Origin: a virus
Taxonomy: Duplodnaviria; Heunggongvirae; Uroviricota; Caudoviricetes
Length of the DNA: 38,518 nucleotides
Direction: 5' to 3' (one strand)
Virus record (IMG/VR): IMGVR_UViG_2671181134_000015
Part shown: one piece after another, positions 1,294 through 31,985 of the stretch
How the letters are laid out: each line of letters opens with the position of its first letter
How positions within the stretch are numbered: the first letter of the stretch is position 1
Made by a program: the position numbers and the translations under genes
The notes under the pieces: generated by a model
Told to the model about the DNA's origin: nothing
Database searches by the model: none
What the model saw: only the letters and a program-made list of their open reading frames with translations

Positions 1294-1412
1294 TACCCAA
1301 TTTTTCTGAATCTAAAAAGCGCCTGCGGGCGGTTTTTGCATGAGATTAATTAACTGAAAATAAAAGGGATTTATTTTCAGGTGTCCATATAATGTCCATC
1401 TTTGAAACAAAA

Positions 1413-1450
1413 AAGCCCGCAGTTTTTACGCTACGGGCTTTGTTTTTCTT
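1413..1450. terminator. Bidirectional intrinsic terminator-like hairpin (AAGCCCG ... CGGGCTT with A-run upstream and T-run downstream)
   Basis: 7-bp GC-rich stem at 1413-1419 and 1434-1440, T-run 1441-1450 on + strand and A-run 1405-1412 giving a U-run on the minus strand; sits at the 3' end of minus-strand hok copy A. A weaker hairpin plus T5 at about 1319-1338 may be the proximal serS terminator. Confidence 0.5.
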
Positions 1451-1467
1451 TGTGACTTGCGTGTGAG

Positions 1468-1835
1468 GGTGCTACTTTCGACCGAACCTTTGGCAACCGG
1501 ATAGCGGGGGCTTTCACCCCCGCTGCGGTTTCTTACGGTTTACACTGCAAGAACGCCGCAAATTCTGACCACATGATGTTAAGTCTGAACTCACACGGCG
1601 AACGGTGTATCATCCAGACTGTCAACAACATGGTTAAGCATAAAATGCTCACGATGATCGTTTTTTGCGGCATAGCGCTTGCTCCTTTTTCAAAGAGGCG
1701 CTAACCTTCCACTTGCGAAGGTTAGATGGTTAGGGCCTCGGGTTAAACAAATGTTTGACTCGGGGCCTTTTCACATCCGGCCTTCAGGTAATCCTTCCAG
1801 CCGTCAGCCGAAAGGCACCCACGTGTAATCTACTG
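1468..1835. repeat. Direct repeat copy A (about 370 bp) carrying a hok-type locus
   Basis: Aligns by eye with 1942-2312 at about 470-bp offset; near-identical across the toxin ORF and more divergent in the leader region upstream of it. Confidence 0.8.
1533..1673 (-). CDS. Hok/Gef-family type I toxin, copy A (46 aa)
   Basis: Minus-strand ORF MPQKTIIVSILCLTMLLTVWMIHRSPCEFRLNIMWSEFAAFLQCKP: N-terminal transmembrane helix, then CEFR and EFAAF resembling the Hok CEIR and EVAAF signatures; GGAG 8 nt upstream of ATG; below the 60-aa cutoff of the ORF track. Confidence 0.6.
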   Translation of the reverse strand: MPQKTIIVSILCLTMLLTVWMIHRSPCEFRLNIMWSEFAAFLQCKP

Positions 1836-1889
1836 ATTTCCCTTTGTGCGCGCAATGCTCAGTGTTGAAACTGTTTAGGGGGGGGCGGC

Positions 1890-1912
1890 AAAAAAGCCCG
1901 CATATTGCGGGC
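1890..1912 (-). terminator. Intrinsic terminator for minus-strand transcripts (hok copy B)
   Basis: GCCCGCA-TAT-TGCGGGC hairpin at 1896-1912 preceded on + strand by A6 (1890-1895), i.e. hairpin followed by U6 on the minus strand. Confidence 0.6.
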
Positions 1913-1941
1913 AAATACGTCTGTAATCCAATGGAGAAAGG

Positions 1942-2312
1942 GGTGCCATATCGACTGAACCCGACAACCGGATAGCGGGGCCGTTCACCCCCGCTGCGGT
2001 TTCTTACTGTTTACACTGCAAGAACGCCGCAAATTCTGACCACATGATGTTAAGTCTGAACTCACACGGCGAACGGTGTATCATCCAGATGGCCAACAAC
2101 ATGGTTAAGCATAAAATGCTCACGATGATCGTTTTTTGCGGCATAGCGCTTGACTCCTTTTACAGGGAGGCGCTAACCTTCCACTTGTCTAGGGTAGGAA
2201 TGGTTAGGGCCTCGGGTTAAACAATATGTTTGACTCGGGGCCTTTCCACATCCGGCCTTCAGGTTTTCCTTCCAGCCGTCAGCCGAAAGGCACCCGCGCG
2301 TAATGTACTGGT
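1942..2312. repeat. Direct repeat copy B carrying the second hok-type locus; right end overlaps the 3' end of ogr
   Basis: Aligns with 1468-1835; see copy A. Confidence 0.8.
2004..2144 (-). CDS. Hok/Gef-family type I toxin, copy B (46 aa)
   Basis: MPQKTIIVSILCLTMLLAIWMIHRSPCEFRLNIMWSEFAAFLQCKQ; intact frame, 3 amino-acid differences from copy A; GGAG upstream. Confidence 0.6.
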   Translation of the reverse strand: MPQKTIIVSILCLTMLLAIWMIHRSPCEFRLNIMWSEFAAFLQCKQ

Positions 2313-2581
2313 TTTAAAGTCATACCGCAATCCTCCAGTTGTAGCGTTAACTGACTGCGTCCCTGATGGGATTTGCGCATTGTCTCCCGTGGAATATCTT
2401 TATCGTGGAAGATCAACTGAGGCTGGCCAATAATTCTGTGCACACTTTCCATTGTTGAAAATGTGGCGCTGCACTCAAGGTTATTGCACTGATAGTATTT
2501 GTAGCGGATGGTGCCGGTATCATTGGCGGCTTTACTGGTACGGATCCGGGCAGATGCGCCGCAGAATGGACAATGAAACAT
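2279..2581 (-). CDS. ogr: Ogr/Delta-type zinc-finger late-gene transcriptional activator
   Basis: MFHCPFCG...YYQCNNLECSATF four-Cys zinc finger as in P2 Ogr; start taken at MFHCP (ORF track extends 17 codons further upstream); about 28 aa longer at the C-terminus than P2 Ogr. Confidence 0.8.
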   Translation of the reverse strand: MFHCPFCGASARIRTSKAANDTGTIRYKYYQCNNLECSATFSTMESVHRIIGQPQLIFHDKDIPRETMRKSHQGRSQLTLQLEDCGMTLKPVHYARVPFG

Positions 2582-31602: not shown

Positions 31603-31985
31603 GGTGTGGCCTCTTCGTTTGTGAATTTTGAAAACTCACCAACCAGAGGTTCCAAGCTCAGGGTGGCGAGACGTACAGGGTTGGAACTACCGGCAAACGA
31701 AGAAACCGGCCCGACCGAAGTCGGCCCTGTACGCCCCGCCATAATTCTGATGCGAAAAAGACGTGGCGATACAGTACGCACAAAAAAACCGCTGGCGCGG
31801 CTGTGCGCTTCGTTTGTCAGCGGGGTTCCAATCCCGGCACCCGTTTTATGAGGTGCAGCGGAAATGTAACCCGACACGACGAGCGCTGGCAAGCGGTTTT
31901 TGTGTTGCGTGCTGATGTGGTTAGAATGTGGCGAATTAATATCACCTGGCAACTGGTGATTGTCTGCATACGCGGGGTGTTTCTG

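Follow-up and report, generated by a model that had tools for sequence, protein, structure and literature searches.

Two tandem cassettes of the hok/sok type as probable cargo at the ogr end of a P2-like prophage

Tandem repeats and their toxin reading frames

The window analyzed here, a stretch of 38,518 nucleotides from a virus of the Caudoviricetes (IMG/VR record IMGVR_UViG_2671181134_000015), contains at 1406-2330 two direct repeats of ~472 bp each that code on the minus strand. The repeats comprise paired segments at 1494-1690 and 1965-2161 (95% identity), 1740-1839 and 2215-2314 (88% identity), 1682-1725 and 2154-2197, and 1726-1750 and 2200-2224, each pair being offset by 471-475 bp. 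An earlier reading of these letters alone (the first-pass annotation) had described two tandem direct copies of roughly 370 bp, and the direct copies are real. In a pairwise alignment the units, hereafter A and B, are 89% identical overall, with a patchy divergence that amounts to 2.8% in the ORF, 25% in the predicted antisense tail and ~50% in the 3′ spacer.

Each unit encodes an intact ORF of 46 amino acids on the minus strand, here called hokA (1533-1673; MPQKTIIVSILCLTMLLTVWMIHRSPCEFRLNIMWSEFAAFLQCKP) and hokB (2004-2144; MPQKTIIVSILCLTMLLAIWMIHRSPCEFRLNIMWSEFAAFLQCKQ). The former is preceded by the Shine-Dalgarno sequence AAGGAG (1682-1687, minus strand) and the latter by a Shine-Dalgarno sequence at 2154-2159 on the same strand. 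The ORFs are separated by one synonymous and three non-synonymous changes, and the peptides accordingly by three residues (T18A, V19I and P46Q). An uncharged stretch (residues 5-22; TIIVSILCLTMLLTVWMI) lies near the N-terminus of the peptide, and the CEFR and EFAAF motifs on which the first-pass annotation had based a Hok/Gef assignment are legible in both translations, their aligned counterparts in R1 Hok being LCEIR and EVAAF. The overall identity to R1 Hok is 34% over 44 aa (E = 2e-8).

The search against Hok/Gef models that had been suggested for these peptides places both above the gathering score of 22 of Pfam HOK_GEF (PF01848), with 27.8 bits for hokA and 26.6 for hokB over profile positions 7-42 of 42, and both also match PHROG 251, "MokW-like host killing" (69 and 67 bits). 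All 25 of the 25 database relatives of the peptides carry the Hok/Gef name. In a 100%-identical genome, RefSeq annotates the two ORFs as "Hok/Gef family protein" (WP_001135720.1 for hokA and WP_001135719.1 for hokB), and the same protein sequences stand at the same positions in E. coli STEC17-183 and ~10 further complete genomes; this annotation covers the ORFs only and leaves the antisense RNA and mRNA features unannotated. Scores against the NCBIfam HokA equivalog NF007290 (37.9 and 36.6 bits) and the Hok subfamily NF007279 (27.3 and 27.0 bits) fall far under the respective cut-offs of 89 and 73, and thus the peptides are neither HokA nor any named chromosomal Hok. Of 5426 complete E. coli genomes, 736 possess the 46-aa Hok family, its ORF length is retained in nearly all of ~60 distinct units, and the median dN/dS among 55 distinct ORFs is 0.24. 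A search of the locus against the PADLOC catalogue of anti-phage defence gave no match.

The ogr gene, the attachment site and carriage by the prophage

To the right of the repeats lies a gene for an ogr/Delta-like late transcription activator (2279-2581, minus strand; Pfam Ogr_Delta, 58 bits), whose coordinates are those given by RefSeq in the identical genome. The predicted hokB transcript opens with the last 17 nt of ogr, the ogr stop codon stands inside the hokB 5′ leader, and the predicted hokB promoter (2302-2330, minus strand; TTGCGG at 2325-2330, a 17-nt spacer and TACATT at 2302-2307) is situated within the 3′-terminal coding sequence of ogr. The first-pass annotation had noticed an overlap of copy B with the last 9 codons of this gene, which is approximately right, the overlap of the repeat being 34-36 nt. 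The corresponding hokA promoter is predicted at 1827-1855 on the minus strand (TTGCGC at 1850-1855, a 17-nt spacer and TAGATT at 1827-1832). The pattern TTGC(C/G)N-17-TA(G/C/A)ATT-6-GGGTGCC is kept in 66 different upstream contexts, among them those of Stx phages that have no ogr at that place.

The left attachment-site core, AAAGCGCCTGCGGGCGG, is found at 1316-1332 (plus strand) within the serS terminator, and everything rightward of it is prophage. The core CCTGCGGGCG is common to the empty K-12 site, attL and attR, and comparison with the empty site shows that K-12 homology ends at ~1337. Both copies are therefore on the prophage side of the region downstream of serS, for which a comparison across strains had been advised, and not between serS and the prophage where they had initially been placed. 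Furthermore, a block consisting of the att arm, hokA, hokB, ogr and D, 99.5% identical and encoding the same two WP proteins, occurs at three unrelated chromosomal sites, namely between serS and dmsA, beside gyrA, and after a tRNA-Lys/Val cluster, and at all three the homology starts at the same att core, AAAGCGCCTGCGGGCG. Because the same hokA-hokB-ogr end recurs at three attachment sites, both cassettes are inside the integrated element and move with it. One such cassette is likewise found between an ogr-like gene and int in the deposited genome of the P2-like phage Chuche. The backbone of the present prophage has no close phage relatives at the nucleotide level, with only ~75% identity over the tail genes to Xuanwuvirus-type phages.

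The location of copy A within the prophage also bears on the earlier suggestion that this copy is a host-side relic of a previous phage integration at serS, with copy B alone belonging to the present prophage. The segment 1836-1877 does resemble the ogr 3′ end upstream of copy B, a 36-codon frame ending ...VDYTWVPFG and a stop is still open upstream of copy A, and other genomes possess 1, 2 or 3 copies at serS beside different or degraded prophages. Yet what had been taken for a decayed ogr 3′ end is a similarity that falls chiefly on the -35, the -10 and the leader, which is to say on the conserved hok promoter with its many upstream contexts, including those of Stx phages devoid of ogr. No att-core scar was found between copies A and B, and the junction of a B-type terminator with an A-type promoter recurs within 3-copy arrays, as expected for cassette amplification. 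Since the complete block is shared by three chromosomal sites, a relic at serS is very improbable, and both copies are better regarded as cargo of one mobile element.

Predicted hok mRNAs and their fold-back structure

Transcription from the two promoters would produce full-length mRNAs spanning 1406-1820 for hokA and 1890-2295 for hokB (both minus strand), with minimum free energy (MFE) folds of -177.7 and -163.6 kcal/mol, respectively. The unit A fold has a z of -10.6, with 0 of 100 shuffled sequences as good, and that of unit B a z of -5.9. The predicted 5′ ends, 1820 and 2295, coincide with position 1 of the Rfam sok model (RF01794). This model represents the hok 5′ leader and aligns end to end on the hok strand at 1663-1820 (E = 2.4e-9) and 2133-2295 (E = 3.5e-8), in both cases under its gathering score of 59 (48.3 and 43.9 bits).

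Each transcript would begin with a tac-like 5′ element, located at 1804-1820 in the hokA mRNA (GGGTGCCTTTCGGCTGA) and at 2279-2295 in the hokB mRNA. Allowing up to 3 mismatches, this 17-mer occurs exactly twice in the whole window, compared to 0.14 occurrences expected. Its putative partner in the hokA mRNA is an fbi-like 3′ element (1467-1488) that is complementary to the 5′ end at 1799-1820 and pairs with transcript nt 1-22 in the MFE fold, while the fbi-like element of the hokB mRNA (1941-1958) pairs with the 5′ end through 7 bp, an internal loop and 8 bp. The imperfect complementarity between the ends of each unit that was recorded in the first-pass annotation is hence borne out, as both GGGTGCTACTTTCG at 1467-1480 (plus strand) and CGAAAGGCACCC at 1809-1820 occur and pair with each other in the whole-transcript fold, and the structure prediction then called for returns a 5′-3′ fold-back for both units. 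When truncated, the B mRNA is predicted to refold such that its 5′ end pairs with +49 to +59.

Just past the hokA stop codon, the MFE fold features a stable hairpin at 1502-1525 (minus strand; helix 17), five pairs of which display compensatory changes, and this is likely the 3′ protective hairpin of a processed hokA mRNA. Intrinsic terminators are read on the minus strand at 1412-1441 for hokA, where an 11-pair stem that forms the 3′ hairpin of the fold is followed by TTTGTTTC, and at 1896-1912 for hokB (GCCCGCAATATGCGGGC followed by TTTTTT), close to the positions given for them previously (1413-1450 and 1890-1912).

Projected onto 37 relatives, a structure that was taken from unit A is 84.6% paired, compared to 35-45% in slid controls, and 32 pairs are changed on both sides compared to 8-21 in those controls. 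The relatives were collected by an exact 17-mer from the transcript 5′ end, which fixes the 5′ side, so that the covariation of helix 1 (tac-fbi; 90.4% paired in the 37 relatives) is one-sided only and consists of G-C to G-U changes on its 3′ side.

Predicted Sok-like antisense RNAs

On the plus strand, candidate promoters for Sok-like RNAs can be read at 1679-1707 (TTGCTC-17 nt-TAACCT, with the -10 at 1702-1707) and at 2150-2179 (TTGACT-18 nt-TAACCT, with the -10 at 2174-2179). Their -35 elements overlap the hok Shine-Dalgarno region, as in the R1 Sok promoter, and the complement of the -10, GGTTAG, is nearly invariant among 37 family members. A generic promoter scan brought neither the hok nor the Sok-like promoters to threshold. 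The only plus-strand promoter-like matches of that scan, at 1619-1646 and 2090-2117, are inside the ORFs. They were considered as antisense promoters and dropped because the family's other ORF group has a different sequence there; with 9 of 12 matching positions they are at chance level (2 found and 1.5 expected).

The RNA predicted for unit A (1714-1771, plus strand) would consist of a single-stranded 5′ tail of ~18 nt, a 17-bp hairpin (1732-1769) and a U run (1768-1771), the start of which is overlapped by the hairpin. The RNA predicted for unit B (2186-2245, plus strand) has a 5′ tail that is ~25% different from that of A. The hairpins are 12-15 kcal/mol more stable on the plus strand than on the minus strand in both A (-32.5 versus -17.2 kcal/mol) and B (-33.6 versus -20.3 kcal/mol), and the antisense strand is favored in this way in 23 of 23 distinct family variants. 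The predicted antisense region stops ~30 nt short of the hok Shine-Dalgarno sequence, on its upstream side.

Predicted specificity of the two antisense tails

The first-pass annotation had drawn attention to toxin ORFs that are nearly identical alongside leaders that diverge where an antisense RNA would act, and the tails do discriminate in silico. Duplexes of each tail with its cognate target reach -32.2 and -37.7 kcal/mol, and crossed duplexes only -12.4 and -14.6 kcal/mol. It is a part of established knowledge on R1 that the single-stranded Sok tail makes the first contact. On the basis of these models, each antidote probably recognizes its own mRNA much better than that of the other cassette.

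The two copies might instead be a simple and recent duplication, functionally redundant, such that either Sok-like RNA would repress the two mRNAs alike and the differences in the leaders would be neutral. The hairpin parts of antisense RNAs A and B are one inserted base apart with no other difference, and duplexes of the whole RNAs remain very stable when crossed (-106 and -109 kcal/mol, versus -134 and -141 kcal/mol for cognate pairs), so some cross-talk is possible. Co-resident cassettes were also surveyed for avoidance of identical tails, and 10 of 10 pairs differ by at least 21%, but this is not significant (~0.18, a rough estimate) because among random pairs that have similar ORFs but are not co-resident ~78% differ as well, as redundancy would allow. 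A recent duplication does not readily account for divergence as uneven as that seen between the ORFs, tails and 3′ spacers of A and B, however, nor for an array at another locus (L026) in which the ORFs are identical and the antisense tails 26% different. Family-wide, the divergence of tails is decoupled from that of ORFs, and this, taken together with the weaker tail pairing upon crossing and the role of the tail in R1, renders full redundancy rather unlikely and argues for antidotes that are largely specific to their own cassettes.

Absence of a conserved mok frame

In R1, hok can be translated only when mok is translated as far as the hok Shine-Dalgarno sequence (PMC9841398). A point overlooked in the first-pass annotation is that a canonical mok frame is missing here. 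Among 77 distinct units scanned for ORFs with ATG, GTG or TTG starts that overlap the hok start, a long overlapping frame exists in 11 only and none is conserved. The site corresponding to the mok start of R1 lacks a start codon, and the ORF that opens at a conserved AUG at +45 has 1 codon in A, 15 in B, and between 1 and 79 across the family. Without a conserved mok frame, the canonical control of hok by Sok cannot apply as such.

It might follow that the cassettes look intact and are silent, either because the hok ORF is never translated without mok or because toxicity of the peptide has been lost. Several chromosomal hok loci of K-12 are silent, and the dependence of R1 hok on mok, the very short +45 ORFs of A and B and the low NCBIfam scores would all be compatible with such a fate. 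Silent genes, on the other hand, would hardly be expected to exhibit the low dN/dS and the constant ORF length reported above, to conserve promoter, Shine-Dalgarno, tac, fbi and antisense elements alike, or to be so widespread in E. coli, and the hok ORF has a strong AAGGAG of its own at a distance of 8-9 nt from the ATG. Silence is thus quite unlikely, and functional cassettes are the preferred reading.

A further proposal, speculative and on balance unlikely, is that the 46-aa Hok subfamily constitutes a mok-less variant of hok/sok with a non-canonical antisense action. As the antisense RNA would bind 30 nt or more ahead of the hok ribosome-binding site, it would have to act by a non-canonical route such as decay, a structural switch or the blocking of a standby site. 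The cassettes would then be modular, with a nearly invariant toxin and leader joined to a fast-changing antisense "address" of ~20 nt, reassorted by recombination and stacked in arrays of 1-3 at the ends of P2-like phages, where they could serve as addiction or lysis-assist modules, orthogonal to one another and immune to neutralization by a related co-resident prophage.

Interpretation and significance

Taken together, the region 1406-2330 of the window is best interpreted, with a probability of roughly 0.85, as two tandem type I toxin-antitoxin cassettes of the hok/sok type, carried as cargo (morons) of a P2-like prophage between ogr and the left attachment site, with fold-back mRNAs and tail-specific antisense control. 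Pfam, PHROG 251, RefSeq, Rfam and the RNA folds concur in supporting the core of what had first been proposed, that is, two tandem hok-family type I loci associated with a phage end. The analysis covers the anatomy of the cassettes, the family to which the peptides belong, the predicted folds, the strand asymmetry of the antisense hairpins, conservation with covariation, and carriage by the phage, and their transcription, processing, toxicity and antisense control are expected by homology with hok/sok of R1 and hokW/sokW of Sp5.

In this model, each cassette would have its own sigma-70-like promoter, from which leftward transcription would yield an mRNA of ~400 nt, the first 17-22 nt of which would pair with a segment ~350 nt downstream, and this fold-back probably prevents both translation of the full-length mRNA and access of the antisense RNA to it. 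Slow trimming from the 3′ end would remove the 3′ partner, upon which the 5′ end may re-pair with GGAAAGGCCCC at +48 to +58 and the leader would open. An antisense RNA of ~58 nt, made from the opposite strand by a promoter that overlaps the Shine-Dalgarno region of hok and ended by a terminator hairpin and U run, would bind the opened leader through its single-stranded 5′ tail and lead to decay or a block of translation. Were the antisense RNA lost, the 46-aa membrane peptide would be made and would damage the inner membrane.

The importance of these observations is modest and lies in the finding that P2-like phages carry type I toxin-antitoxin cassettes as cargo at the junction of ogr and att, where a hok promoter is built into the coding end of ogr and arrays of variable copy number have a toxin in common and differ in their predicted antisense recognition tails. 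The toxin genes have already been named in annotation; the antisense RNAs and mRNA features, predicted here, have not. If confirmed, such arrays would offer a natural test bed for the evolution of antisense specificity in hok/sok and for the control of Hok without mok. A prophage hok/sok module promotes lysis and phage release (PMC8621323), and stacked cassettes could therefore affect prophage stability or the timing of the burst in Shiga-toxin-producing E. coli hosts.

Comparison with known systems

The cassettes are an uncharacterized member of a known family, and tandem type I toxin loci are themselves already known; a literature search on hok in P2-like phages or on tandem hok arrays found nothing specific. 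The archetype is hok/mok/sok (parB) of R1, which, together with the hok mRNA family studied by Gerdes and co-workers, is summarized in PMC9841398. As in R1, the peptide is small and of the Hok/Gef type, with a transmembrane helix at its N-terminus and the motifs C-E-x-R and AAF, its predicted mRNA of ~400 nt has a 5′ tac/3′ fbi fold-back, a post-stop hairpin and an alternative partner for its 5′ end, RF01794 aligns end to end, and a cis antisense RNA of ~60 nt is predicted with a single-stranded 5′ tail, a terminator hairpin and a promoter overlapping the hok Shine-Dalgarno region. Unlike R1, the peptide has 46 rather than 52 aa at 34% identity, the Rfam score remains under gathering, and the cassettes are phage-borne and in tandem; the mok frame is not conserved, so that the antisense RNA cannot block translation of mok.

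Carriage of a hok/sok-type module by a prophage is shared with the functional type I toxin-antitoxin system hokW-sokW of the Stx2 prophage Sp5/933W (Takada et al. 2021, PMC8621323). The possibility that the present peptides are the published HokW was considered and discarded, as HokW of Sp5 is a different paralogue of 51 aa with another N-terminus (MKQQKAM...; PMC8621323) and "MokW-like" is simply the name of a PHROG family. The closest relatives of the units in Stx phages, at 77-84% nucleotide identity, occupy a locus separate from hokW and next to lom, and in older records these are unannotated or labeled "hypothetical".

As tandem arrays, the cassettes resemble chromosomal type I loci of E. 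coli, namely ldr-rdl (the LDR repeats), ibs-sib and zorO-orzO/zorP-orzP (Fozo et al. 2010, PMC2887945; PMC3919570). In both, a unit of a few hundred bp is directly repeated, and each copy has a small toxin ORF together with a dedicated cis antisense RNA, which is predicted in the present case; copy number varies among strains. Cognate-specific repression through small sequence differences has been shown for Sib and Ibs. The toxins belong to different families, and whereas those loci are chromosomal and intergenic, the hok array is borne by a phage beside its attachment site.

Toxin cassettes and peptide family

The two tandem minus-strand cassettes at 1406-2330, hokA and hokB, are of the hok/sok type and belong to a Hok subfamily that is uncharacterised, for which all functional statements made here are predictions. 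Both repeats, their intact 46-aa minus-strand ORFs (1533-1673 and 2004-2144), the two terminators and the end-to-end complementarity described in the first-pass annotation were all recovered, at coordinates that proved exact or a few bases off. The repeat period is 471-475 bp, with the copies 95% identical over the ORF and 3' hairpin and ~90% identical in the leader, but poorly matched between the fbi element (the 3' partner of the 5' tac element) and the terminator. The family membership first proposed from sequence hallmarks was borne out by Pfam HOK_GEF, which both peptides match at 27.8 and 26.6 bits (gathering score 22), as they do PHROG 251 (69 and 67 bits). They share 34% identity with R1 Hok over the transmembrane helix, CE(I/F)R and AAF. 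RefSeq names both "Hok/Gef family protein" (WP_001135720.1 and WP_001135719.1), as are 25/25 database relatives, all 25 from E. coli. Neither peptide reaches the cut-offs of the NCBIfam HokA and Hok subfamily models, and so the pair constitutes a separate, unnamed subfamily. Relatives detectable by megablast occur in 736 of 5426 complete E. coli genomes (~14%), at up to 7 places per genome, and 55 distinct ORFs give a median dN/dS of 0.24. Existing annotation covers the toxin ORFs but neither the antisense RNAs nor the mRNAs.

Predicted mRNA fold and promoters

Rfam RF01794 ("sok"), which in practice describes the hok-strand 5' leader, matches over its full length at 1663-1820 and 2133-2295. 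Both hits score short of the gathering threshold (E = 2.4e-9 and 3.5e-8), and position 1 of the model lands on GGGUGCC in both units. With transcript 5' ends set at 1820 (A) and 2295 (B), full-length folds of -177.7 kcal/mol (A; z = -10.6) and -163.6 kcal/mol (B; z = -5.9) were obtained. Both folds bring the 5'-terminal 17-22 nt into a helix with the sequence immediately preceding the terminator spacer, as the anticipated fold-back would require. When the B transcript is deprived of its 3' partner, GGG-GCCUUUC is predicted to pair instead with GGAAAGGCCCC at +49 to +59, an alternative pairing of the expected kind. Among 120 viral contigs bearing the 17-mer GGGTGCCTTTCGGCTGA, 77 distinct units were found and 37 aligned. 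On this alignment the unit-A structure reaches 84.6% pairing, compared to 35-45% in slid controls, with 32 pairs changed on both sides (8-21 in the controls), figures that relate to a structure derived from unit A and to a 5' 17 nt fixed by the search itself. Clear compensatory changes are seen in the post-stop and antisense-terminator hairpins.

In all 66 distinct contexts, GGGTGCC is preceded by TTGC(C/G)N, 17 nt, TA(G/C/A)ATT and 6 nt, across several ogr alleles, inter-unit spacers and Stx phages without ogr at that position. By this shared pattern the hokA promoter is placed at 1850-1855 and 1827-1832 (minus strand), and that of hokB at 2325-2330 and 2302-2307 (minus strand), within the coding end of ogr.

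Predicted antisense RNAs and control

Putative plus-strand antisense promoters, TTGCTC-17-TAACCT at 1679-1707 (A) and TTGACT-18-TAACCT at 2150-2179 (B), overlap the hok Shine-Dalgarno regions, the position occupied by the Sok promoter in R1. These weak matches were not called by a generic promoter scan. The predicted plus-strand RNAs (~1714-1771 and ~2186-2245; ~58-60 nt) each carry an unpaired 5' tail ahead of a 17-bp hairpin, after which comes a U run. Folding of these hairpins is more stable on the plus strand (-32.5 and -33.6 kcal/mol for A and B) than on the mRNA strand (-17.2 and -20.3), since the G-U pairs of one strand correspond to A-C mismatches in its complement. This asymmetry holds in 23/23 distinct variants (mean -21.2 vs -13.6) and argues for a functional plus-strand RNA. 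Promoter-like matches (9 of 12) also lie antisense within each hok ORF (1619-1646 and 2090-2117, plus strand); these were rejected as antisense promoters, their count being no greater than chance and the ORF sequence there differing in the family's other ORF group.

At the start position of R1 mok, the leader frame overlapping hok, the units read AUC, AUU, ACU and the like, and a long frame overlapping hok is found in only 11 of the 77 distinct units, with no conserved mok. It is therefore unsafe to presume that the units work by the canonical mechanism with three genes. An AUG at +45 of the hok mRNA (1774-1776 in A and 2249-2251 in B, minus strand), preceded by GAAGG, is nearly invariant; it opens a frame of 1 codon in A, 15 in B and 1 to 79 across the family. 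Some 30 nt separate the end of the predicted antisense region from the hok Shine-Dalgarno sequence downstream of it, and control would probably be exerted through duplex-triggered decay or structural occlusion. Partial dependence on RNase III has been reported for hokW/sokW (PMC8621323).

The predicted antisense tail diverges by 25% between the copies, against 5.7% over the initial 53 nt and 2.8% for both the ORF and the hairpin, in keeping with the near-identical ORFs and diverged antisense target originally noted. The further proposal that they do not cross-regulate fares unevenly in duplex modelling: tail-only duplexes discriminate between cognate (-32.2 and -37.7 kcal/mol) and crossed partners (-12.4 and -14.6), but whole-RNA crossed duplexes remain strong (-106 and -109 kcal/mol). 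Arrays of two or three units occur in the retrieved annotated E. coli genomes and IMG/VR contigs (L002, L008, L009, L026 and L096), and tails differ by 21-31% in 10/10 co-resident pairs, among them one (L026) whose ORFs are identical. These data do not establish statistically that arrays avoid identical tails. Family-wide, no module varies more than the tail, and tail divergence is uncoupled from ORF divergence, which points to modular reassortment.

The prophage and carriage of the cassettes

The window begins with E. coli serS (1-1293), beyond which the match to K-12 and most E. coli runs for only 44 bases, ending at ~1337, and ends with the phage integrase gene (37526-38518). NZ_CP075652.1 is 100% identical from serS to D (1294-2700) and carries the integrase, then CCTGCGGGCG, then dmsA. 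This 10-mer also lies within the serS terminator (1322-1331) and, together with the end of K-12 homology, marks the sequence from ~1332 rightward as an integrated P2-like prophage. The P2-like backbone is supported by Ogr/Delta (Pfam, 58 bits) and by late control D, tail sheath and tail tube genes. NZ_CP075652.1 is ~550 bp longer between the serS-hok-ogr end and the integrase stop codon, and thus an indel somewhere distinguishes the two prophage bodies. The phage arm that separates the att core from the hokA terminator bears an AT-rich inverted repeat with perfect 11-bp arms (CTGAAAATAAA/TTTATTTTCAG, 1354-1364 and 1370-1380) and two direct TGTCCAT repeats (1382-1388 and 1393-1399); this region (1354-1399, plus strand) may hold integrase arm or IHF sites. 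Elsewhere, Rfam matches above gathering score to C4 antisense RNA (31659-31746, minus strand; 86 bits) and isrK (31782-31856, minus strand; 69 bits) constitute a P1/P7-type antisense immunity element in a P2-like prophage, and ~16135-17093 is ~74-80% identical to a Stx-phage SASA-family carbohydrate esterase (NanS-like) gene.

The stop codon of ogr, the late activator gene (2279-2581, minus strand), lies at 2279-2281, inside the hokB leader. As the hokB promoter and leader overlap this end, the last ~17 codons of the 100-aa Ogr are encoded by hok-cassette sequence; the C-terminus ...DCGMTLKPVHYARVPFG* corresponds to the hok promoter plus the initial 17 nt of hokB mRNA (2279-2330, minus strand). 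No terminator was found between ogr and hokB in the 2279-2330 region, and ogr transcripts should, on sequence grounds, run on into hokB.

The sequence at 1836-1877 had been read as a decayed ogr 3' end, and copy A as the relic of an older integration. The former resembles ogr because both carry the conserved hok promoter, and is not a decayed gene. The latter is at odds with the att-arm-hokA-hokB-ogr-D block, which recurs at 99.5% identity, encoding the same pair of proteins, at three chromosomal sites (serS-dmsA, beside gyrA, and following the tRNA-Lys/Val-RtT cluster), each time with homology that begins at AAAGCGCCTGCGGGCG; both cassettes thus travel with the phage. The three sites share AAAGCGCCTGCGGGCGG (window 1316-1332; L132 and L133, each ~3501), and the phage uses such terminator-like sequences as alternative attachment sites. 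Comparison downstream of serS across strains, as originally suggested, reveals an empty site in K-12, where dmsA directly follows serS, and related prophages with one, two or three cassettes. In a one-copy prophage (L003), the unit body equals A except for one base and is fused directly to its own ogr, and the B-type terminator/A-type promoter junction recurs within three-copy arrays. No att scar was found between copies A and B. Cassette amplification and exchange, putatively by recombination in the highly conserved leader, fits these observations, whereas an older-integration relic does not.

Comparison with known systems

Three features make these loci interesting: the absence of mok, an antisense tail that is modular and variable, and an array at the phage end whose promoter is fused into ogr. 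P2-like phage Chuche carries one cassette, between an ogr-like gene and int. In Stx phages, a homologous cassette (77-84% identical) lies between lom and the next gene (933W, AF125520, L005 1501-1896; L007 1501-1897); the original 933W record leaves this cassette without annotation, and it is a different locus from the published hokW. HokW, an experimentally studied prophage Hok, is a 51-aa paralogue that differs from the 46-aa peptides described here (PMC8621323). The tac/fbi fold-back that defines hok mRNAs (PMC9841398) is common to the predicted hokA and hokB mRNAs, and their tandem arrangement follows a known tendency of type I toxin loci to duplicate, as in ldr-rdl, ibs-sib and zor-orz (PMC2887945).
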